From an uncultured bacterium (GTDB lineage: Bacteria > Planctomycetota > UBA8742 > UBA2392), in the NCBI GenBank assembly GCA_938014885.1, contig CALLQI010000004.1, positions 94,578 to 158,577 of the forward strand: a stretch of 64,000 nt of DNA, in the 5' to 3' direction. The notes under the pieces are model-generated. The model was not told the DNA's origin and made no database searches. It saw nothing but the letters and a program-made list of their open reading frames with translations. The first letter of the stretch is position 1. Each line of letters begins with the position of its first letter. Shown here piece by piece: positions 313 through 55,289 of the stretch. Both the position numbers and the translations under genes were made by a program.

Positions 313-744
313 ATGCGCCTGATGATGATGATGATGCTGCTGGCACTGATGACGGCCACACCGCTGGCCGCGCAGGACACCGGCGCGGGCCCGGCCGAAG
401 GCAAGACAGAAGAAAAGGAAGCCGAAAAGGAAGAAAAGCCCAAGATCACGGAGGCCGGCGCCAAGCTGCTGGAAGACGTGAACCTGGTGTACGACAAGTA
501 CTACGCGATCCTGCTGGACAAGACCAAGGCCGGCGAAAGCTACAGCTCAGATGAGGTTTGGGACACGGCGGTCAAGGAAGCGCGCAACGCGAAATACAAG
601 GACCGCAAAGAGTTCCACGCCGCGATCACGGCCATGCAGCGCACGGACCGCGTCTTCCGCAAAGAGATGCAGGCGGTCAGCACGGCCAAAGCCAAAGCCT
701 TCGCCGAAGCCGTCGAAAAGTGGGCTGAAGAGAAGCAGGAGTAA
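313..744 (+). CDS. Small secreted hypothetical protein (signal peptide MRLMMMMMLLALMTATPLAAQ, Lys/Glu-rich mature part)
   Basis: ATG preceded by AGGAGGG. Hydrophobic N-terminus with an AxA-like cleavage site. Followed by an intrinsic terminator. Confidence 0.5.
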   Translation: MRLMMMMMLLALMTATPLAAQDTGAGPAEGKTEEKEAEKEEKPKITEAGAKLLEDVNLVYDKYYAILLDKTKAGESYSSDEVWDTAVKEARNAKYKDRKEFHAAITAMQRTDRVFRKEMQAVSTAKAKAFAEAVEKWAEEKQE

Positions 745-758
745 GCGCCCCAACACAA

Positions 759-789
759 CAGCGCCCCCAACTCGGGGGCGCTGCTTTTT
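759..789 (+). terminator. Rho-independent terminator after the secreted-protein gene
   Basis: cagcgccccc / aactc / gggggcgctg forms a 10-bp GC stem followed by cTTTTT. It sits between convergent genes (313..744 on +, rho on -). Confidence 0.55.
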
Positions 790-833
790 CTGCACGGCAA
801 GGGCCCTGACCCCCAAGCCCGAATTCCCAATCC

Positions 834-8670: not shown

Positions 8671-8692
8671 GCCTGAGTCCGCGCAAACCAAA

Positions 8693-8719
8693 GGCCCGTC
8701 CAAAGCGGACGGGCCTTTT
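8693..8719 (+). terminator. Rho-independent terminator after ispH
   Basis: ggcccgtcc / aaagc / ggacgggcc stem-loop followed by TTTT. Confidence 0.6.
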
Positions 8720-15176: not shown

Positions 15177-15210
15177 AAAACGGGCCAGCCGAAGCTGGCC
15201 CGTTTGCGTT
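15177..15210 (+). terminator. Bidirectional intrinsic terminator (bcp on + / secreted-protein gene on -)
   Basis: aaaACGGGCCAGC-cgaa-GCTGGCCCGTttgcgtt: a 10-bp stem flanked by an A-run and a T-rich tail. Confidence 0.6.
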
Positions 15211-46097: not shown

Positions 46098-46125
46098 GCA
46101 GCCCCGCTCGACCGTTGGCATGCAA

Positions 46126-46156
46126 GAAATGCGGGGCGCGTCACGCCCCGCATTTC
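46126..46156 (+). terminator. Bidirectional intrinsic terminator between the lipoprotein gene (+) and rtcB (-)
   Basis: gaaatgcggggcg-cgtca-cgccccgcatttc: a 13-bp perfect stem, followed by TTCTTC. Confidence 0.6.
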
Positions 46157-46158
46157 TT

Positions 46159-47382
46159 CTAACCCTTCACGCACACTACCTGCTTCAGCGTGTGGACGAT
46201 CTCCACCAGGTCCTTCTGGGCTTCCATGACCGCGTCGATGTCCTTGTACGCGGCCGGGGTTTCGTCGATCACGTCCTTGTCCTTGCGGCACTCGACGCCT
46301 TCCGTGGCGGCCACGTGGTCGCGCACCGTGAAGCGGCGCTTGGCCTCGCCACGGCTCATCGCGCGGCCGGCACCGTGGCTGCACGAGCAGAAGCTTTCCG
46401 GGTGGCCCTTGCCGCAAACGATGTAGCTGCGGGCACCCATGCTGCCCGGGATGATGCCAAACTCGCCCTTCTTGGCGCTGACGGCGCCCTTGCGGGTCAC
46501 GAACAGCATTTCACCGTAATGCTCTTCGCGCTCAACGTAGTTGTGGTGGCAATTCACCACCATCTCGTCGGCGGTGAACTCGGGCACGCCGGGCGTGCGC
46601 GCGACGGCCGCAATCACCGCGCGCATCATGCACTCGCGGTTGATGCGCGCGAACTCCTGCGCCCACGAAACCGCGCGGACGTAATCGTCGAAGTGCTCGG
46701 CACCTTCTTCAAAGTAGGCCAGGTTTTCGTCCGGCAGGTTCTTCACGTGATGCTGCATGTCCTTCTTTGCCAGCTCAATGAAGTGCGTGCCGATACGGTT
46801 GCCCACGCCACGCGAGCCCGAGTGCAGCATCAGCCACACACGCGAATCCTGGTCGATGCACACTTCGATGAAGTGATTGCCCGTGCCCAGCGTGCCCAGG
46901 TGATGCACCGGGTGCGCGTTGCGCGACAGCTTCGGGTGGCGCGCCACCAGCTCATCATAGCCGGCGGCCAGCTTGGCAAACGCGTTCACGTGGCCCTCCG
47001 GCGGGGTGCGCCAGGCGCCGCGGTCGTTGCGGCCGCCGCCGTCGGTGCGGCCGTGGGGTACGCGCTCTTCAATCGCGCGGCGGATGTCTCCCAGCTTGTC
47101 GGGCAGGTCTTCGGCGCGCAGGCTGGTGCGGACCGCGCACATGCCGCAGCCGATATCGACGCCCACAGCGGCCGGGATAATCGCACTCTTGGTCGGGATC
47201 ACCGAGCCCACAGTGGCACCCATGCCCCAGTGCACGTCGGGCATTGCGGCGACCCACTTGTGAACGACCGGCAGACGCGCGACGTTCAGCAGCTGCTGGC
47301 GCGCTTCGGCCTCAAATTCGACGCCATCCACCCATGCCTTGATCGGCTTGGCGCCGTGTGCTGTGATCAGTTCGTAGTTCAT
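46159..47382 (-). CDS. rtcB: RNA-splicing ligase RtcB
   Basis: RtcB metal-binding blocks (DIGCGMC, HNYV..., HGAGR); start at ATG 47382 with GGAG upstream; 407 aa. Confidence 0.9.
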   Translation of the reverse strand: MNYELITAHGAKPIKAWVDGVEFEAEARQQLLNVARLPVVHKWVAAMPDVHWGMGATVGSVIPTKSAIIPAAVGVDIGCGMCAVRTSLRAEDLPDKLGDIRRAIEERVPHGRTDGGGRNDRGAWRTPPEGHVNAFAKLAAGYDELVARHPKLSRNAHPVHHLGTLGTGNHFIEVCIDQDSRVWLMLHSGSRGVGNRIGTHFIELAKKDMQHHVKNLPDENLAYFEEGAEHFDDYVRAVSWAQEFARINRECMMRAVIAAVARTPGVPEFTADEMVVNCHHNYVEREEHYGEMLFVTRKGAVSAKKGEFGIIPGSMGARSYIVCGKGHPESFCSCSHGAGRAMSRGEAKRRFTVRDHVAATEGVECRKDKDVIDETPAAYKDIDAVMEAQKDLVEIVHTLKQVVCVKG

Positions 47383-47514
47383 CCGGTCTCCGTTGCTGTA
47401 TTCATTTGTAGCCCAACGCACGCGAGTTTCGCGTGTCTGCCCGGCGCCGCAACCGCAAATGACAAACGCCAGGGGCCGTTGTGCGGACCCCTGGCGTTTT
47501 CGCGATTCGTGATG

Positions 47515-48630
47515 CTAGCGCACGGAACTGTCGGGCTTGGGCTCAGACTTCTGCAGGTACACCCACACGTAGGGCTTGCGGTTGAAGGGCGCCTTGCGGG
47601 TGCCTTCCTTGGCCGGTTCGGTGTTGGCCCACATGGAGTAACCGCCGACCACGAGATCCAGCTTGCCGTCGCCGTTGTAGTCGATCACGTCAAAGTACAG
47701 TCCCGCGTCGGCGCGCACCGCGCCTTCGGCGTCTTTCTTGGCGGGGGCAATCAGCGCCTTGGGCGCGTCGAACTTTGGCTCGCCCTTTTTGCCGGTGTTG
47801 CGGGCCCAGAACACGCCGCCGCCTTCACCGTTGCCGTAGGTGTCGCCGAACGTGCCGAACAGCAGGTCGTCCACGCCGTCTTTGTCCCAGTCCAGCAGGC
47901 GCGGCGAAGTGACCTTGCCGCCCAGTTCAAGCGGCTTGTCGCCGGACATGATGCGCTTGCTGATGGTTGCATACTTGGGCTCTTTGGTGCTGCCCTCGTT
48001 CAGGTTCAGCCACAGGCCGCCGTTGCGGTCGCCGAGGATGATGTCGAGGTCGCCATCGGCGTCCCAGTCCCATGCAAAGGCCGAAATGCAGTGGGCGCCG
48101 CCCTGGGCTGCGTCGGTCATGTTCTTGCTGGTCCACTTGCGGGTTTCGTAGTCCCAGTACTGGGACAGGATGATGCGCGCGCCTTCGCTGTTCTTGACCT
48201 GCGATGGCGTCTGGAAGCCTTCTTTGCTGCCGAAGCTCACCCAAGGCGAGCCGTCAAACGTGGCGGTGAAGATGTCAGTGATGCCGTCGCCGTTGAAGTC
48301 CACAAACTGTGGGGCCATCCCGATGCATCACCAGTTGTTGAATTTCAAAGGCTTGCCATCGGCACCGTTCAGCGTCTTTTCTTCGCCCCAACCGTCTTCG
48401 GTGCGGGTGCTTACCGTCAGGCTGCCACGCAGGTCGCCGATCACCATCTCGATCTTGCCGTCTCCGTCGATGTCATGCAGCGCGGGCGAAGGATACAGAC
48501 GGTCCGCGGTGCCCAGCTTGTGGCCGAGCGGGGCATCGCCGGCCTTGAGTTGCACCGGTGCCTCAAACGTCTGTGCGGACAGTACCGTCGCGGCAAGCGC
48601 GCAGGCTGCTGCCAAGGTCGGTTTCATCAT
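47515..48630 (-). CDS. Secreted FG-GAP/VCBS-repeat beta-propeller protein interrupted by one in-frame TGA (48328..48330)
   Basis: ORFs 48328..48630 and 47515..48318 are in the same frame; the reverse strand reads ...KPLKFNNW-TGA-CIGMAPQFVDFNGDGITDIF.... Repeated DxDGDG/DxNGDG calcium-binding loops occur on both sides (DIDGDGKIE, DFNGDGITD, DWDADGDLD, DWDKDGVDD, DYNGDGKLD). Confidence 0.55.
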
Positions 48631-48762
48631 GCGTAGTCTCCTTGTAAGTCGGTCGGGGCCTTGCCCGGGGTCGCGTATGATACGCGCTGATTCGACCGGC
48701 TACTAAGTGAATCCCGCCTGCCTTCCTTTGACCGATATGCCCTGCCTGCTATTGTCGATTTC

Positions 48763-49962
48763 ATGGAAAAGGTCGTCATGGCGTACTCGGGCGGGCAAAG
48801 CACCACCGCTGCCCTGCACTGGCTTAAGCGCTCGCGCGGGATGCGCGTTGTGGCAGTCGCGCTGAACCTGGGCCAGGGGGGCGACTTTGACGAAGTCGCC
48901 AACCGCGCCATTGAGGCCGGTGCGGATTCAGTCCACGCCATTGATCGCCGGCGCACCTTTGTGAAGCAGTATTGCTTCAAAGCCCTGCGGGCCTCGGCGC
49001 GCTATGAAGGGGCGTATTACCTGTCAGCCGCGCTGTCGCGCCCGCTGATCGCAACCGAGCTTGTGGCCATGGCGCAGGAAGAAGGCGCGCGCTACATAGC
49101 CCACGGGGCACCTCCCAAAGGCAACGACCAGTTCCGCTTCGAGTGCGCGGTGGCAGCCCTGGACCCTGCGCTGCGCAGCATTGCCCCGATGCGCGAATGG
49201 AGCCTGCAAACCCGCGAAGAAGTGCTGGGCTACCTGAAGCAGAACAACTTGCCCTCCGGCGACAGCACCGAGCGCACCTACAGCAGCGATCGCAACCTGT
49301 GGGGAGTGCGCAGCAGTGCCGGTGAGCTTGAAGACCCAGGCCTGCCCGTGCCGGAATCAACCTACCAGATCACCACCAGCCCTGCGCAGGCCCCCGACGA
49401 GCCCGCCGACGTGGAACTGAAGTTCCATCAGGGCGAACCCGTAAGCCTGAACGGCAAGAAGCTGCAACCCGTGGAGCTGGTCGAAGAGCTTGAGCAAATC
49501 GCCGGTGCCCACGGAGTCGGCCGCTTTGACACCATTGAGGACCGCATTCTCGGCTTCAAGAGCCGCGAAGTGTATGAAGCCCCGGCCGCGCACGTGCTGC
49601 ACATCGCGCACGATGAACTCGAGAAGCTGACCCTGGACGCCGAGTTCATTGAGATGAAGCCGATGCTCGCCCAGCGGTACGCTGAGCTGGTGTACGACAG
49701 CCGCTGGTTCTCAAGGCTGCGCGAGAGCCTGGACGCGTTCTTCCGCGAAAGCCAGCAGTACGTGACCGGCACCGTGAAGCTGCGCCTGTACAAGGGCAGC
49801 GTAACCGTGCAGGGCCGCCACAGCGAGTTCAGCATCTATGACAGTGAGGCCAGCCGGCGCCACCACAGCGGCGGCATTCCGGCCGCCAGCATCGCGGGCT
49901 ACCTTGAACTGCGCCGCCTGAACCAGATGACCCACAGTTTCAAACAGCGTCCGAAGTTCTGA
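48763..49962 (+). CDS. argG: Argininosuccinate synthase-like protein (divergent ATP-pyrophosphatase motifs)
   Basis: AYSGGQSTT (canonical AYSGGLDTS) and HGAPPKGNDQFRFE (canonical HGATGKGNDQVRFE); the ArgG C-terminal region is conserved; 399 aa. Confidence 0.75.
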   Translation: MEKVVMAYSGGQSTTAALHWLKRSRGMRVVAVALNLGQGGDFDEVANRAIEAGADSVHAIDRRRTFVKQYCFKALRASARYEGAYYLSAALSRPLIATELVAMAQEEGARYIAHGAPPKGNDQFRFECAVAALDPALRSIAPMREWSLQTREEVLGYLKQNNLPSGDSTERTYSSDRNLWGVRSSAGELEDPGLPVPESTYQITTSPAQAPDEPADVELKFHQGEPVSLNGKKLQPVELVEELEQIAGAHGVGRFDTIEDRILGFKSREVYEAPAAHVLHIAHDELEKLTLDAEFIEMKPMLAQRYAELVYDSRWFSRLRESLDAFFRESQQYVTGTVKLRLYKGSVTVQGRHSEFSIYDSEASRRHHSGGIPAASIAGYLELRRLNQMTHSFKQRPKF

Positions 49963-49969
49963 TCGGCGC

Positions 49970-51721
49970 TCAGTTGGCCTTGCGTTCTGTGGCCAGCGCG
50001 GCCTCCAGCGTCGGGTGGAAACTCAGTTCACCCGGGGCTTCTTCGATGTGCGCCTTGGCCATGGCACGCCGAGGTTGCGGGCAGACCCCCACCATGCACA
50101 CGCGAACACCCTGAGAGCGCAGCTTGCCCAGCAGGCTTTCCAGCGCGACCAGGCCGGTCACGTCCATGGCCGGGACCGCGTGCATATCCAGCACCAGCAC
50201 TTTCTCACTGCCGGTGGTCTGGATCGCGCTGATGGCTTTGTCGGCCGCGCCAAAGAACAGCGGACCCGCGATCTCGTAAAGCATCACGCCTTGCGGCAGC
50301 GGCTCACGCGCGGCGGCCCCATTGCCGACCACGCGCGCGCCCGAGATTTCAGCCATGCGCCGCATGAACAGCAGCGCGGCCAGCACAATGCCCACGCTGA
50401 CCGCAATCACCATGTCAAAGACCACCGTAAGCGCAAAGCAAAGCAGCAGCACCACCAAATCGCTGCGCGGGGCCACGCGAAGCATGTGCACGAAGTGCTT
50501 GGCGTCGCTCATGTTCCAGGCCACCACCAGCAGCAGCGCCGCCAGACCCGCCATCGGCAGATAGCCCAGCACCGGTGCCAGCGCCATTACTACCGCCAAC
50601 AGGAACAATGCATGCGTCAGGGCCGCAATTGGGCTGCGCCCGCCGTTGCGCACATTGGTTGCGGTACGGGCGATCGCGCCCGTGGCCGCAAATCCGGCAA
50701 AGAAGGGCGCCACCAGGTTGCCCAGCCCCTGGCCCACGAGTTCCGCATCGGGGTCATGGCGTGTGCCGGCCATGCCGTCGGCGACGACGGCTGAAAGCAG
50801 CGATTCAATGGCACCCAATGCCGCAATGGCAAATGCGGGGCCGATCAGCGCCCGCACCAGCGCCCAGTCCATATGCAGCGGCTGCCCATCCGGCCCCGGC
50901 AGCGACCAGGGCAACACCGGAAGCGGCGGCAACTGCGGAATGCCGGGCATGGTCACGCCATCCTTCACGTAGCTGAATCGACCAGCGATGGTCGCCGGCT
51001 GCACGCCCGCGAACTCGGACAGTGCATAGGCCAGGCCCGCCGCCAGCGCTATGGCCACCAGCGGGCCAGGGATCTTGCGGGTGATGCGCGGCCACACCAG
51101 CAGCAGTGCCAGTGTCACGCCGCCGACCAGCGCGTCGGCCCACGAAACGGAGGGCATGGCAGATGCAAGGTCGGCAATGCGGTTCCAGTAATGGTCGCCG
51201 CTGGGCGTGACGTTCAGCCCAAGAAAGTCCTTCACCTGCAACGTGGCGATCACTACGGCAATGCCCGCGGTGAAACCCGTCGTAACCGGGTAGGGCACAA
51301 ACTGCACCAGCTTGCCCAGCCGCGCCAGACCCATCACGACCAGGATTGCGCCCGCCATCAGCGATGCCAGCGCAAGCCCGCCCAGCCCGTACTGGGCGGA
51401 AATCGGGGCCAGCAGCACCACAAACGCCGCTGTCGGGCCTGAGACGTTCAGTCGGCTGCCGCCCGTTACGGCAATCAGCCCGCCCGCGACAATGGCCGTG
51501 TACAGCCCGTGCTGCGGCGGCACGCCGGACGCAATCGCCAGCGCCATCGCCAGCGGCAGCGCCACGATGCCCACGATCACCCCTGACACGATGTCAGCCC
51601 GCAGTTTGCGGCCGCTGTAGCCTTCGCGCAGCGTGCCGCGCAACGCGGTCGCAAACGGGAAAGTACGCCACTGGCCCGCCGCCACGTGGCGGCGACTTCG
51701 CTGAGGTTCTGTGCCCGGCAT
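49970..51721 (-). CDS. SulP-family anion (sulfate/bicarbonate) transporter with a C-terminal STAS domain
   Basis: Multi-TM SulP core (GLYTAIVAGGLIAVTGGSRLNVSGPTAAF) and a STAS domain; start at ATG 51721. Confidence 0.85.
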   Translation of the reverse strand: MPGTEPQRSRRHVAAGQWRTFPFATALRGTLREGYSGRKLRADIVSGVIVGIVALPLAMALAIASGVPPQHGLYTAIVAGGLIAVTGGSRLNVSGPTAAFVVLLAPISAQYGLGGLALASLMAGAILVVMGLARLGKLVQFVPYPVTTGFTAGIAVVIATLQVKDFLGLNVTPSGDHYWNRIADLASAMPSVSWADALVGGVTLALLLVWPRITRKIPGPLVAIALAAGLAYALSEFAGVQPATIAGRFSYVKDGVTMPGIPQLPPLPVLPWSLPGPDGQPLHMDWALVRALIGPAFAIAALGAIESLLSAVVADGMAGTRHDPDAELVGQGLGNLVAPFFAGFAATGAIARTATNVRNGGRSPIAALTHALFLLAVVMALAPVLGYLPMAGLAALLLVVAWNMSDAKHFVHMLRVAPRSDLVVLLLCFALTVVFDMVIAVSVGIVLAALLFMRRMAEISGARVVGNGAAAREPLPQGVMLYEIAGPLFFGAADKAISAIQTTGSEKVLVLDMHAVPAMDVTGLVALESLLGKLRSQGVRVCMVGVCPQPRRAMAKAHIEEAPGELSFHPTLEAALATERKAN

Positions 51722-52019
51722 GGCTGATGCGGCGGCTTCTGGGCGCGCCGTACTCCGGCGCAAGGCGGCTGTGCGTGACGCTCGTCAGCCCGTCTGCGGT
51801 CGCCGCGACAATCGCGCGGCACAACGGCATCATAGGGGCAGGAAGGCAGGCTGCAACCAGCCCGCCAACGTAGAGGACGCGGCTGGTCCTGTTCCCGCAC
51901 GCAGCGCTGCAAACCCGAGCCGCTGCTACCCGTTTGCATCGGCGGCCAGCCTTGCTATCTTTCCGCCCAATCAGCAAGGCGAGGCGACGTGGAACGAAGT
52001 GGAACCAGGACCAGCACAT

Positions 52020-52045
52020 GCGACGCTAACGGCGTCGCTTTTTTT
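52020..52045 (+). terminator. Intrinsic terminator/attenuator in the pyrB leader, 35 nt upstream of the pyrB start
   Basis: GCGACGC-taacg-GCGTCGC followed by TTTTTTT. A 3-codon mini-ORF ATG CGA CGC TAA (52018..52029) overlaps the 5-prime arm. Confidence 0.55.
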
Positions 52046-52079
52046 GTGCCCTGCACCGGCGTCTGCGCGGAGAACTGCC

Positions 52080-53054
52080 ATGACTGAACCCGCGCCGCTG
52101 CTTTGGAAGCGCAAAGACCTGCTGGGTCTCGAAGAGCTTTCGCGCGAAGAAATCCTGCACGTGCTCGACACCGCGCGCGGCTTCTCGGAAATCAGCACCC
52201 GAAGCATCAAGAAGGCCCCTGCACTGCGCGGCAAAGTCGTGCTGAACCTGTTCTTTGAGCCCAGTACCCGCACCAAGGCCAGCTTCAGCCTGGCCGCGCA
52301 ACGCCTCAGCGCCGACCTGGTCGATATCGTCAAAGAAGCCAGCAGCGCCGTGAAAGGCGAAACGCTGGTCGACACCGGCTGCAACCTGCAGGCTATGGGC
52401 GTCGACATCGTGATCCTTCGCCACCAGCAGGCCGGTGCGCCGCACCTGTTGGCGCGCAGCCTGGACGCCTGTGTGGTAAACGCCGGCGACGGCACCCATG
52501 AGCACCCGACGCAGGGCTTGCTCGATATCTTCACGATGCGCGAGAAGTTTGGCGACTTGACCGGCAAGAAGATAGCGCTGGTGGGCGACATCACCCACAG
52601 CCGCGTGGCGCGCAGCAACATCTGGGGCCTGCGTAAACTGGGCGCCGAGGTAGGCATCATCGGGCCGCGAACCCTTCTGCCGGGCGCATTCCGTGAACTC
52701 GGCGTGAACCTGCATTATCACCTGGATGAAGTGCTGGACCACTACGACGTGTTCAACATCCTGCGCATCCAGATGGAACGCCAGAAGAAGGGCATGTTCC
52801 CCAGTGTGCGCGAATACCACCACTTGTACGGCATTGATTCGCGCCGCGTGAAAAAAATGAAGCCCCATGCGCTGATCATGCACCCGGGCCCGATCAACCG
52901 CGGCGTTGAGATCAGCCAGGAAGTAGCCGACGGCGACCACAGCGTGATCCTGCGCCAGGTCACCAACGGGCTGGCTGTGCGCATGGCAGTGCTGGTACTC
53001 GTGCAATCAGCCCAGCCGGCCACTCACGGCTCAGGGAGGTACGAGCATGCCTGA
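52080..53054 (+). CDS. pyrB: Aspartate carbamoyltransferase catalytic subunit
   Basis: STRTR carbamoyl-phosphate motif, HPTQ, HPGP; ATG 52080 preceded by GGAGAA; the upstream part of ORF 51711..53054 is leader sequence. Confidence 0.9.
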   Translation: MTEPAPLLWKRKDLLGLEELSREEILHVLDTARGFSEISTRSIKKAPALRGKVVLNLFFEPSTRTKASFSLAAQRLSADLVDIVKEASSAVKGETLVDTGCNLQAMGVDIVILRHQQAGAPHLLARSLDACVVNAGDGTHEHPTQGLLDIFTMREKFGDLTGKKIALVGDITHSRVARSNIWGLRKLGAEVGIIGPRTLLPGAFRELGVNLHYHLDEVLDHYDVFNILRIQMERQKKGMFPSVREYHHLYGIDSRRVKKMKPHALIMHPGPINRGVEISQEVADGDHSVILRQVTNGLAVRMAVLVLVQSAQPATHGSGRYEHA

Positions 53055-53976
53055 TGCCGCCGCGACACAAGCAGCCGCAAAGCCTGCGCCGCTTCAGATA
53101 CCGCGCCATCTTCACGCGATACTGCTGCTGTCGGTGCTGATTGTTGCCGGACTCGCCGGGCTGCGCTTCCTGAACCGCGTTGCGGTATTCCCCCCCACCC
53201 TGAAAGACGCGTCTGTCGGGCCGCGCGTGGCGGCCGAACGCACGGATGTTCGCGAAGCACGCATCCCCACCGAAGACGGGCTTTCCCTATACGGCTGGGT
53301 CCAGGGCCGCGATGCAGCGCCCCGCAAGATCATCATGTTCGGCGGCAACGCTGAGTACACCGGCCCCAGCGCGCAGATGTACGCCGACCGCTGCGCCGCA
53401 CTGGACTGCCAGTTCTTGATCTTTGACTATCGCGGTTTCGCCAACAGCCCCGGCCAGCCCAGCGAACACGGCCTGTATCGCGACGCGCGCGGCGCGTACA
53501 ACTTTGCGATCACCGAACTGGGCTGGAAGCCCGCGCAGATCATCCTGTGGGGCCGCAGCCTCGGCGGCGCCGTAGCGATCCGCCTGGCACACGAACTGCA
53601 GGCTGAAACCCGCCGCGAAGCGCTGAAAGACGGCGCACCGGCGGCCGCGCTGCTGCTGGAAGCTCCGTTTCTCAGCATCGGTGCCATGGGCAAGCACTAC
53701 TACCCGTGGCTGATCAAGCCCGAGTGGTTCGCCTACACGATCATGGACAACGGCAAGCTCGCCGCCGACCTGAAGCTGCCGGTGTTTCAACTGCACGGCG
53801 ACAAGGACGAAATCATCCCCTTCGAACAGGGCGAAGCGCTGCACGCGGCCTTCAAGGGTCCCAAACAATTCCTGCGCCTTGAGGGCGTGATGCATAACAA
53901 CGTATGGCAGGACGAGGCCCGCACGAAGCGGATCGACCAGGCCATGGACGAGTTTCTGAATAAGCACGCGCCATGA
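53047..53976 (+). CDS. Alpha/beta-hydrolase fold protein (membrane-anchored), inserted between pyrB and the DHOase-like gene
   Basis: TM helix LLLSVLIVAGLAGL; GRSLGG nucleophile elbow; Asp/His downstream (HGDKDEIIP, MHNN). Confidence 0.7.
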   Translation: MPDAAATQAAAKPAPLQIPRHLHAILLLSVLIVAGLAGLRFLNRVAVFPPTLKDASVGPRVAAERTDVREARIPTEDGLSLYGWVQGRDAAPRKIIMFGGNAEYTGPSAQMYADRCAALDCQFLIFDYRGFANSPGQPSEHGLYRDARGAYNFAITELGWKPAQIILWGRSLGGAVAIRLAHELQAETRREALKDGAPAAALLLEAPFLSIGAMGKHYYPWLIKPEWFAYTIMDNGKLAADLKLPVFQLHGDKDEIIPFEQGEALHAAFKGPKQFLRLEGVMHNNVWQDEARTKRIDQAMDEFLNKHAP

Positions 53977-55289
53977 GTGAAACCATTCTCATCAAAGGCG
54001 GCTACCTGCTTGACCCGGCCACGGGCAAGGAAGGCGTCGGCGACGTGCTGATTGCCGGCGGCAAGATCGTGGCAGCGGGCAACGTGAGACTCGCCGATGC
54101 CCAGAAATCAAGCCCCGACGGCCACGTCGAGGTGCTGCAATGCGAAGGCCTTCATGTTGCACCGGGCCTTGTGGATCTGCGCGCCCACATGGGCGAGCCC
54201 GGCCACGACAGCGAAGAAACCATTGCCCACGGCGCGGAAGTGGCCGTCCACGGCGGCTTCACCACCGTCGCCTGCCTGCCTGACACCGAACCCGCGAACG
54301 ACAACGTGGCATCGGCCTTGTTCGTGCGGCGCCAAAGCGAACAGGCCGGTTTTGCCGACGTGTGGCCGGTTTGCGCCCTGACCCGCAACCGCGAAGGTCG
54401 CGAGCTTACCGAGATCGGCCAGCTCGTTGAGGCCGGCGCGGTCGCCTTCAGCGATGAGCAGCGCGGCTCGGATACGCCCGCGGCCATCCTGCGCGGGATG
54501 AGTTACGCCAGCATGTTTGACCGCGCGGTGATTGAGTACGCGCAAGACCCCGAGCTCGCGGGCGGCGTGATGAACGCGGGCTATGAATCCGCGCTCGCAG
54601 GCCTGTCCGGCCTTCCGGCGGTCGCCGAAGAGCTCGCGATTGCGCGCGCCTGCATGTTCGCGCGCGAAACCGGCTGCCACTTTCACGCGGGCAAGTTGAC
54701 CTCACGCAACGCGGTGCGGGCGGTCAAGCGCGCGCGCAAGCTGGGAGTGCGCGTCACAGCCGAAGTCTGCGCGCATCACCTGGCTGTGACCGACGACGAA
54801 GTCCGCAAGGCCTACGACACCAACCTGAAGGTGTTCCCGCCGTTTCGCACGCGCGAAGACATCGCCTGGCTCAAGCGCGGCCTGCGCGAGGGCGTGATCG
54901 ACTGCATCGTAAGCGGGCACAGGCCCGTGCCGCCCCAGTTGAAGGAACTTGAATTCGGCGCTGCACCGTTCGGCAGCGTCGGGCTTGAGACTGCACTGGC
55001 CGTGGCACTGACTGAACTGGTGCACACATCAGAGCTGCCGCTGCTGGCTGCGATCACCAAGCTGACGCTGAACCCGGCCAAAGTCCTGCGTCTGGACAAG
55101 CGCAAGGGCAGCCTGTCACCCGGCACCGACGGCGACCTGTGTATCTTCGACCTCAAGTCCGAATGGCAGGTCACCGAATCGGCCCTGTTCAGCCACGCCA
55201 AGAACTCGGCGCTGCTCGGCCGCACGCTGAAAGGCCGCCCCAAGTTCACCGTCACCCGCAACCGGGTGATTGACCTGGGCATGCGCTAG
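53973..55289 (+). CDS. pyrC: Dihydroorotase-like protein, probably a non-catalytic PyrC-prime type
   Basis: Amidohydrolase/DHOase fold but VDLRAHMGEPG where active DHOases have D-x-H-x-H-LREPG (the first metal-ligand His is Arg). Overlaps the preceding gene by 4 nt; follows pyrB as in PyrB/PyrC-prime organisms. Confidence 0.75.
   Translation: MSETILIKGGYLLDPATGKEGVGDVLIAGGKIVAAGNVRLADAQKSSPDGHVEVLQCEGLHVAPGLVDLRAHMGEPGHDSEETIAHGAEVAVHGGFTTVACLPDTEPANDNVASALFVRRQSEQAGFADVWPVCALTRNREGRELTEIGQLVEAGAVAFSDEQRGSDTPAAILRGMSYASMFDRAVIEYAQDPELAGGVMNAGYESALAGLSGLPAVAEELAIARACMFARETGCHFHAGKLTSRNAVRAVKRARKLGVRVTAEVCAHHLAVTDDEVRKAYDTNLKVFPPFRTREDIAWLKRGLREGVIDCIVSGHRPVPPQLKELEFGAAPFGSVGLETALAVALTELVHTSELPLLAAITKLTLNPAKVLRLDKRKGSLSPGTDGDLCIFDLKSEWQVTESALFSHAKNSALLGRTLKGRPKFTVTRNRVIDLGMR

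Follow-up and report, generated by a model that had tools for sequence, protein, structure and literature searches.

The pyrB locus considered here lies within a 64-kb stretch of DNA (64% GC; hereafter the window) on contig CALLQI010000004.1, which comes from an uncultured bacterium of the phylum Planctomycetota. On the forward strand, the gene for the catalytic chain of aspartate carbamoyltransferase (ATCase), pyrB, is followed by an alpha/beta-hydrolase gene and a dihydroorotase-like gene, pyrC'. The identities assigned to these three genes in a preliminary description of the locus agreed with the Pfam results. Upstream of pyrB, a leader could be recognized which carries a promoter-like motif, a Shine-Dalgarno region, a small leader open reading frame (ORF), and a GC-rich hairpin followed by a run of T residues. 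The coordinates of all features are collected in Table 1.

Table 1. Features of the pyrB leader and operon, with positions in the window.
Feature	Position (strand)	Details	Basis
-35-like hexamer TTTGCA	51933..51938 (+)	TTTGCA or TTGC[AC]N in all relatives, 16–17 bp before the -10-like box; putative function	
-10-like hexamer TATCTT	51956..51961 (+)	TATAAA, TATAGT, or TATATT in relatives	anchored alignment
Leader Shine-Dalgarno region AAGGCGAGG	51976..51984 (+)	GAGG 4 nt before GTG; GGAGG 5–7 nt before the start codon in relatives	
Leader ORF	51989..52087 (+)	32 codons plus stop, M(GTG)ERSGTRTSTCDANGVAFFVPCTGVCAENCHD, then stop; GTG 51989 to TGA 52087	
Terminator hairpin	52020..52038 (+)	5' arm GCGACGC 52020–52026, loop TAACG 52027–52031, 3' arm GCGTCGC 52032–52038	sequence, terminator scan, folding
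U-tract T7	52039..52045 (+)	read as Phe-Phe codons of the leader ORF; proposed UTP-sensitive step	sequence
pyrB Shine-Dalgarno GGAG	52069..52072 (+)	7 nt before ATG; GGAGG or GGGGG at the same place in most relatives	
Stop/start overlap ATGACTGA	52080..52087 (+)	pyrB ATG and leader TGA	
pyrB, aspartate carbamoyltransferase catalytic chain	52080..53054 (+)	OTCace_N, OTCace	Pfam
Alpha/beta-hydrolase gene	53047..53976 (+)	Hydrolase_4 / Abhydrolase_1; overlaps the pyrB stop by 8 nt, ATGCCTGA	Pfam
Dihydroorotase-like pyrC'	53973..55289 (+)	overlaps the hydrolase stop by 4 nt, ATGA	Pfam

The hairpin GCGACGC-taacg-GCGTCGC with its T7 had been reported in the preliminary description, and both the sequence and a terminator scan confirmed it, the scan offering an alternative of eight pairs and a three-nucleotide (nt) loop through an extra U-G pair. 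Its occurrence exceeded chance expectation. At least seven Watson-Crick pairs followed by at least six T in 8 nt were found at five sites on both strands of the window, compared with 0.19 expected from 100 first-order Markov simulations of the window. The exact hairpin palindrome occurred once, the T7 starting at 52039 was the only forward-strand run of at least six T in the 64 kb, and 34 nt separated it from the ATG of pyrB. With a folding energy of −13.6 kcal/mol, the hairpin was the sole stable element of the leader. Four other strong terminator-like hairpins (759–783, 8692–8716, 15179–15204, and 46129–46153), three of which scored on both strands, were situated at gene ends or between convergent genes, and the position in a 5' leader was unique to the pyrB hairpin. 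The strong hairpins at gene ends suggest that this organism uses canonical intrinsic terminators.

Relatives were gathered by a PyrB-based scan of species-representative genomes, which returned 19 loci at 77–91% identity, all from metagenome-assembled genomes (MAGs) of uncultured Planctomycetota, and about 60 more distant loci. Two contigs from a metagenome scan (L120, L177) and five contigs reached through homologous proteins (L205–L209) brought the number of close relatives to 26. Conservation upstream of pyrB had been set beforehand as a check on the structure, and a hairpin with a T-run was found at this place in all 26 relatives with a PyrB identity of at least 77%. In each of the 19 genome relatives, the GC-rich hairpin had the core GACGC...GCGTC and led into a T-rich tail, tails of 5–8 T being kept in the relatives, and the stability of the terminator ranged from −10 to −17 kcal/mol. 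The core of L207 carried one substitution, which turned an A-U pair into a G-U pair, and an alternative stem, GACGCC/GGCGUC, was present in L002, L004, and L016. Structural support for the hairpin is provided by thermodynamics, by conservation, by these alternative stems, and by the G-U variant. A covariance model of the leader (R1) matched exactly once in every relative, always upstream of pyrB; a second match in the window (710–791) was rejected as an ordinary gene-end terminator that follows an ORF ending at 744. The gene 5' of pyrB is divergent and variable between relatives, being a minus-strand SulP permease gene in the window and usually a YggS-like gene in the relatives, so the hairpin element belongs to pyrB. 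The hairpin and U-tract are a conserved element of the pyrB leader and not a gene-end terminator.

Beyond the close relatives, the hairpin was not found upstream of pyrB in the distant loci (about 60 at 57–73% identity, including three at 70–73%). Four Kryptonia loci (L062, L071, L077, L078) formed an exception in that an unrelated conserved hairpin, GAAGCCGAAACC..GGTTTCGGCTTTTTT, was located about 40 nt before pyrB. This hairpin lies directly 3' of the stop codon of a pyrR-like gene and 5' of pyrB, and these loci are probably operons of the PyrR type, in contrast to the clade studied here.

The leader ORF starts about 30 nt before the stem, passes through the hairpin and the U-tract, and stops over the start of pyrB; in the window, the translated hairpin corresponds to codons 11–17. 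The start codon (GTG, ATG, or TTG) precedes the GAC of the stem by exactly 33 nt in the window, in 16 of the 19 genome relatives, and in L120, L177, and L209. Codons 2 and 3 are usually AAG CGA, and the next seven codons are variable in sequence and fixed in length. The CGA of leader codon 3 (51995–51997 in the window) is conserved, AAG CGA is nearly invariant at the nucleotide level, and codon 7 is often CGG, AGG, or CAG. The hairpin and T-run are translated in frame as (S)DA-xx-VA-x-F. No in-frame stop could be detected in any of the 19 analysable leaders, whereas the two remaining frames contained 27 and 19 stops. Relative to the start of pyrB, the leader stop was at +1 (NTGA) or +5 (ATGnCTGA) in each of these 19 leaders, and these positions were reached by seven sequence forms (TTGA, ATGA, GTGA, ATGCCTGA, ATGACTGA, TTGCCTGA, and GTGCCTGA). 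PyrB is variable at its N-terminus, with the non-preferred CCT and ACT in use as the second codon of pyrB. When relatives sharing an overlap class were compared, their spacers differed in net length by 45, 9, 12, 39, 6, and 6 nt, all of which are multiples of 3. Palindromic sequence could be seen inside the leader ORF, between the terminator and pyrB and with the frame intact, in two relatives: L006 carries a clean 45-nt insertion resembling repetitive extragenic palindromic (REP) elements (about 2930–2975), and L051 carries repeated GGGGACTGTCCCC palindromes (about 2895–2990). The length of the dedicated leader ORF ranged from 25 to 56 codons.

The sublineage of L029, L205, and L206 has a different arrangement, in which the ORF starts 32 nt before the GAC, crosses the hairpin in a different frame, and has its stop at +1 or +10 relative to an ATG that follows the T-run by only 8 nt; the leader stop of L209 likewise falls at +1 or +10. 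The called pyrB start in this sublineage, 8 nt past the T-run, has no Shine-Dalgarno site, and its PyrB possesses a 20-residue N-terminal extension (..RTPSGRL..) which is conserved at the protein level. This layout suggests that pyrB is translated by reinitiation in these three loci.

The leader peptide sequence was poorly conserved among the relatives, and no match was obtained at E up to 10 when seven leader peptides were compared with Pfam and five with NCBIfam. Because the peptide is poorly conserved and the frame is kept, it is apparently translation across or up to the hairpin, not the product, that is conserved; these features indicate selection on the leader ORF for such translation and not for the peptide. 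A frameshift or slippage at U7 which would fuse the leader to PyrB was rejected, as the pyrB frame is open in the window (ORF 51711–53054) but interrupted by stops in most relatives. The three-codon mini-ORF ATG CGA CGC TAA (52018–52029, forward strand), which had been proposed as part of the attenuator, is present in the window, but its ATG was found in none of the relatives and it was judged not functional.

The promoter-like pair of the window, TTTGCA-N17-TATCTT, predicts a transcription start near 51968–51970. The leader had been estimated in the preliminary description at roughly 300 nt; the intergenic gap is indeed about 316 nt, but the conserved promoter-like motif at 51933–51961 implies that only about 110 nt of it are transcribed. 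The resulting 5' untranslated region (UTR) of about 12–25 nt includes GGAGG. There was no conserved T3 or G3 tract 6–9 nt past the -10-like box, the start of transcription being a prediction; tracts of this kind mark reiterative-transcription control at the pyrBI promoter (AATTTG) and at B. subtilis pyrG (GGGC). Most relatives had 25–43 nt between the T-run and pyrB, L205 and L206 had 8 nt, and the spacer seen in the stem-anchored alignment was 25–119 nt long; within 25–43 nt, no promoter could be fitted downstream of the terminator. In five relatives (L001, L006, L011, L014, and L015), an anti-Shine-Dalgarno-like CCUUCG or CUCCG, complementary to the CGGAGG of the leader, was observed 1–6 nt past the -10-like box; it may serve as a discriminator or contribute to a hairpin whose formation depends on the start site. 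A pyrC-like, start-site-dependent hairpin sequestering the Shine-Dalgarno site was set aside as an oddity, because CCUUCG/CUCCG is missing from L008 and L010 and is probably located 5' of the transcription start.

Mutually exclusive terminator and antiterminator structures, with a G/A-rich segment upstream of the hairpin as a possible arm, had also been put forward. Only the terminator hairpin folded stably. The G/A-rich segment exists, but it corresponds to the Shine-Dalgarno site together with the GTG and the initial codons of the leader ORF, in a frame other than that of the mini-ORF, and is not an arm of an alternative structure. The RNA upstream of the hairpin folded no better than shuffled sequences (z = +0.65), the fold of the full read-through leader was unremarkable (z = −0.56), and no shared antiterminator or anti-antiterminator was found across 20 leaders, folded full-length and truncated. 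A pairing of AAGCGA (codons 2–3) with UCGCU of the 3' arm was tried and discarded, being 5–6 bp over a loop of ~35 nt and lost in L002, L004, and L016 despite the presence of AAGCGA; a pyrG-like poly-G antiterminator was discarded as well, the 5' arm not being pyrimidine-rich. Before the hairpin there are about 45–55 nt of RNA, taken up by the Shine-Dalgarno site, the start codon, and 21 coding nt of variable sequence, so that neither a PyrR switch nor an aptamer could be accommodated. No riboswitch aptamer with covarying helices was found before the hairpin, where neither a consensus structure nor an Rfam match was obtained. Rfam families, including the PyrR site (RF00515) that had been suggested for the leader, gave no match in the window or in 15 relatives at the gathering threshold, nor in 51600–52200 at E up to 10, and no pyrR gene was located beside pyrB in the 64-kb window or in the flanks of the relatives (up to 3 kb). 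Two models had been named for the control of this operon. The E. coli pyrBI design fits the leader, while the PyrR antiterminator, having neither a site nor an alternative structure here, was left unsupported.

From the anatomy and conservation observed above, we infer both termination in the leader and its dependence on a ribosome. The element is probably a ribosome-dependent leader-peptide transcription attenuator of the pyrB/alpha-beta-hydrolase/pyrC' operon, with uridine triphosphate (UTP) as the likeliest candidate signal, a proposal to which we give a little less than an even chance. Transcription would start about 20 nt upstream of the leader ORF, and the GC-rich hairpin and U7 would form 30 nt into it. 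As the stem begins 30 nt past the start codon, termination is expected as the default and would take place about 60 nt past the start codon, before the ribosome catches up. A terminator located within the first 100 bp of an ORF is normally not impeded, the ribosome being still too far behind (PMC4824070). Read-through would need a ribosome which has initiated at the GTG and translated 6–8 codons before the 3' arm leaves the polymerase; when positioned on the 5' arm, this ribosome would block the hairpin and permit transcription into pyrB. It would then terminate at the TGA overlapping the pyrB ATG, by which translation could be handed to pyrB. Since the leader has no U-rich pause cluster, the U-tract of the terminator is the only plausible UTP-sensitive step. 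Under low UTP, the polymerase would dwell at U7 with the 3' arm still inside the enzyme, and the ribosome would gain time.

Several points weigh against this interpretation. The stretch from the start codon to the hairpin contains 13% U and 30% A, compared with 33% U in E. coli pyrL, and lacks a UTP-sensitive pause cluster. Low UTP alone should favour intrinsic termination, so the direction of regulation hinges on the ribosome arriving in time. The promoter hexamers of the window are weak, with 8 of 12 matches, and fall under the threshold of a generic promoter scan. The seven core stem pairs showed no variation in the covariation test, which gives the hairpin no support of this kind; because these pairs never vary, covariation is uninformative either way. 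RNAalifold returned no consensus structure for the leaders, in part due to misalignment of the L002-type stem by MAFFT. The simple pattern of the ORF is broken in L208, where it stops 4 nt before the stem, and in L207, where the ATG is 9 nt before the stem and the stop 21 nt before pyrB; in both leaders, a ribosome would still occupy the 5' arm. Finally, the clade is known from MAGs alone.

The element is best read as resembling the pyrL-pyrBI attenuator of Escherichia coli and Salmonella in design, and not as a homologue of pyrL. In E. coli (read from NC_000913), a short 5' UTR precedes a 44-codon pyrL ORF which runs through CCCCTC-AATC-GAGGGG and T8 and ends in a TAA 3 nt before pyrB. The enteric system and the present one have in common pyrB as the target, a short 5' UTR, and a Shine-Dalgarno-led ORF through a single GC-rich hairpin with U7–U8. 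In both E. coli and the window, the U-tract is translated as Ala-Phe-Phe, an antiterminator is missing, and the leader stop is found at the pyrB start. In E. coli, tight coupling of the pyrL-translating ribosome to the polymerase is needed to prevent the hairpin (PMC5021804). The differences are several. The peptides are not homologous, those of the present clade having no Pfam or NCBIfam match, and the hairpin begins 30 nt past the start codon here versus about 90 nt in E. coli. The pause cluster of E. coli pyrL, with its TTTTTCTTCCCGTT block, has no counterpart here, and the predicted start site showed no T3 tract for reiterative transcription. The leader stop is not placed ahead of pyrB but overlaps its start, the operon is pyrB-hydrolase-pyrC' instead of pyrBI, and the host belongs to Planctomycetota and not to Enterobacteriaceae.

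Other pyrimidine and amino acid attenuators share fewer of these features with the present leader. At E. coli rph-pyrE, termination before a pyrimidine gene is suppressed by a ribosome on an upstream ORF close to an intrinsic terminator, and the upstream ORF is a full-length gene which ends before the hairpin. The leader ORF of L208, stopping 4 nt before the stem, resembles this layout; in contrast to rph-pyrE, the clade uses a dedicated leader of 25–56 codons, usually running through the hairpin. The PyrR-dependent pyr attenuators of Bacillus and many other bacteria (RF00515) also have an intrinsic terminator within their pyr leaders, but the PyrR binding loop, the antiterminator/anti-antiterminator, and an adjacent pyrR were not found at the present locus. 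The trpL, hisL, and pheL attenuators likewise combine a leader peptide with a terminator and are read out through the position of the ribosome. Unlike those leaders, the present one has isolated Arg codons without a tandem regulatory run and no 1:2, 2:3, and 3:4 structures, and because its terminator lies inside the leader ORF, a stalled ribosome would promote termination.

Alternative explanations of the element were weighed against ribosome-dependent attenuation. A functionless chance occurrence of a palindrome and a T-run has a negligible probability. The motif GCGACGC-N5-GCGTCGC followed by T's is admittedly a common generic terminator that recurs, often in bidirectional form, in numerous unrelated contigs from metagenomes (L081–L200), most of them AT-rich, so the stem sequence alone is not diagnostic of a pyrB leader, and its use as a regulon marker was rejected when, of at least 120 metagenome loci, two proved to be pyrB leaders among the matches listed. 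Its conservation at the same place in 26 of 26 relatives (77–91% PyrB identity) with differing upstream genes, together with the expectation of 0.19 such sites per window, effectively refutes a chance origin. An independent small gene, encoding a small RNA (sRNA) or a small protein and having its own terminator, with pyrB served by a separate promoter, is a very improbable reading. It would account for the conserved, discrete promoter-to-terminator unit of about 75–80 nt, and an attenuated transcript could act in trans; against it, the terminator lies inside the ORF and not after it, the ORF extends as far as the start of pyrB in every relative, the peptide is not conserved in sequence, and the T-run-pyrB gap (25–43 nt in most relatives, 8 nt in L205 and L206) has no room for a promoter. 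Only slightly less improbable is an RNA switch operated by a protein or ligand, of the PyrR anti-antiterminator or riboswitch type, which would bind the conserved ACCGGAGG...GUGAAGCGA and set the formation of the terminator or the translation of the leader ORF. PyrR governs pyr operons in many bacteria, the Kryptonia loci are ordered pyrR, hairpin, pyrB, and conservation near the leader Shine-Dalgarno site and start codon exceeds what these two signals alone would need. The negative results given above argue against such a switch, namely the lack of an Rfam match at the stated thresholds, of a conserved antiterminator/anti-antiterminator structure, and of a pyrR gene adjoining pyrB in any relative, as does the shortness and largely variable coding content of the RNA that precedes the hairpin.

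The main rival, which may also be a second input, keeps the terminator ribosome-dependent and makes it report translation capacity or charged arginine transfer RNA (Arg-tRNA) instead of pyrimidines; we regard it as unlikely, though clearly less so than the readings discussed above. A ribosome slowed at a rare Arg codon 3, and often 7, would allow the terminator to form, and ATCase would be switched off, leaving carbamoyl phosphate to arginine synthesis. Of 21 leaders, 19 have Arg (CGA, CGC, CGG, or AGG) as codon 3 or 4, and 30 of the 32 Arg codons before the hairpin are non-preferred ones (CGA, CGG, AGG, AGA), CGA making up 8% of Arg codons in the genes of the window and about 5% in the pyrB of the relatives. 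The absence of a U-rich pause cluster also favours this rival, as does the competition of ATCase and the arginine pathway for carbamoyl phosphate (PMC6245113). However, the overall Arg content of 16% is near the 13.7% predicted from base composition, only one to three Arg codons are present and never in tandem as in classical amino-acid leaders, L011 and L017 have no Arg at codon 3 or 4, and the non-preferred codons may reflect an unoptimised, A-rich leader. The conservation of the Arg codon may be due to translation-initiation context or phylogenetic inertia.

Both inputs could be combined with the preferred ribosome-dependent attenuator in a minimal AND gate built on one hairpin at the branch point of carbamoyl phosphate, UTP being read through the U-tract and charged Arg-tRNA through the rare Arg codons; this is a speculative and rather unlikely extension. 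If it held, the U-tract of the terminator would be the sole UTP sensor, low UTP slowing the polymerase, and the rare Arg codons at leader positions 3 and 7 would sense charged Arg-tRNA, low arginine holding the ribosome back. In that case, transcription of the pyrB operon would be confined to conditions of pyrimidine shortage with an adequate arginine supply. Translation of pyrB in L029, L205, and L206 would depend on reinitiation past the leader stop, and the gate would provide direct genetic evidence of tight transcription-translation coupling in a lineage of Planctomycetota.

Within the operon, the order pyrB-hydrolase-pyrC' was kept throughout the clade. The alpha/beta-hydrolase gene is located between pyrB and pyrC' in the window, in L001–L017, and in L029, and is chained to both neighbours by stop/start overlaps. 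The overlaps at the leader/pyrB, pyrB/hydrolase, and hydrolase/pyrC' junctions suggest translational coupling down the entire operon. A glycosyltransferase family 9 gene was observed between pyrB and the hydrolase gene in L029, L205, and L206, and also in L207. In the window, argG (argininosuccinate synthase) is situated at 48763–49962, about 2 kb upstream of the pyrB leader, a neighbourhood which is not kept in the relatives. Pfam gave no match, at E up to 0.001, to an ORF of 838 amino acids at 46120–48636; its annotated 5' end carries a bidirectional terminator-like hairpin, and its true start is therefore probably further downstream.

Ribosome-coupled pyrB attenuation is a textbook mechanism which, to our knowledge, is documented only in enteric bacteria. 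Full-text literature searches, the coverage of which is incomplete and which are weak evidence, brought up neither an account of attenuation by leader peptides in Planctomycetes nor one of pyrB leader peptides beyond the enteric model. For annotators, the locus provides a small unannotated ORF and a cis-regulatory element that are absent from Rfam, Pfam, and NCBIfam. The appearance of the same design without sequence homology in uncultured Planctomycetota points to convergent evolution of a regulator that would operate by kinetics only, with no repressor. The planctomycetal version is the more minimal one, having no pause cluster, a start-hairpin spacing fixed at about 30 nt, and a leader stop that overlaps the pyrB start, and this layout may serve as a clean system for asking how closely a ribosome has to follow the polymerase in order to block a terminator. 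If the proposed mechanism is true, these Planctomycetota must couple translation tightly to transcription, which would bear on the debate about cell compartmentalisation in this phylum.

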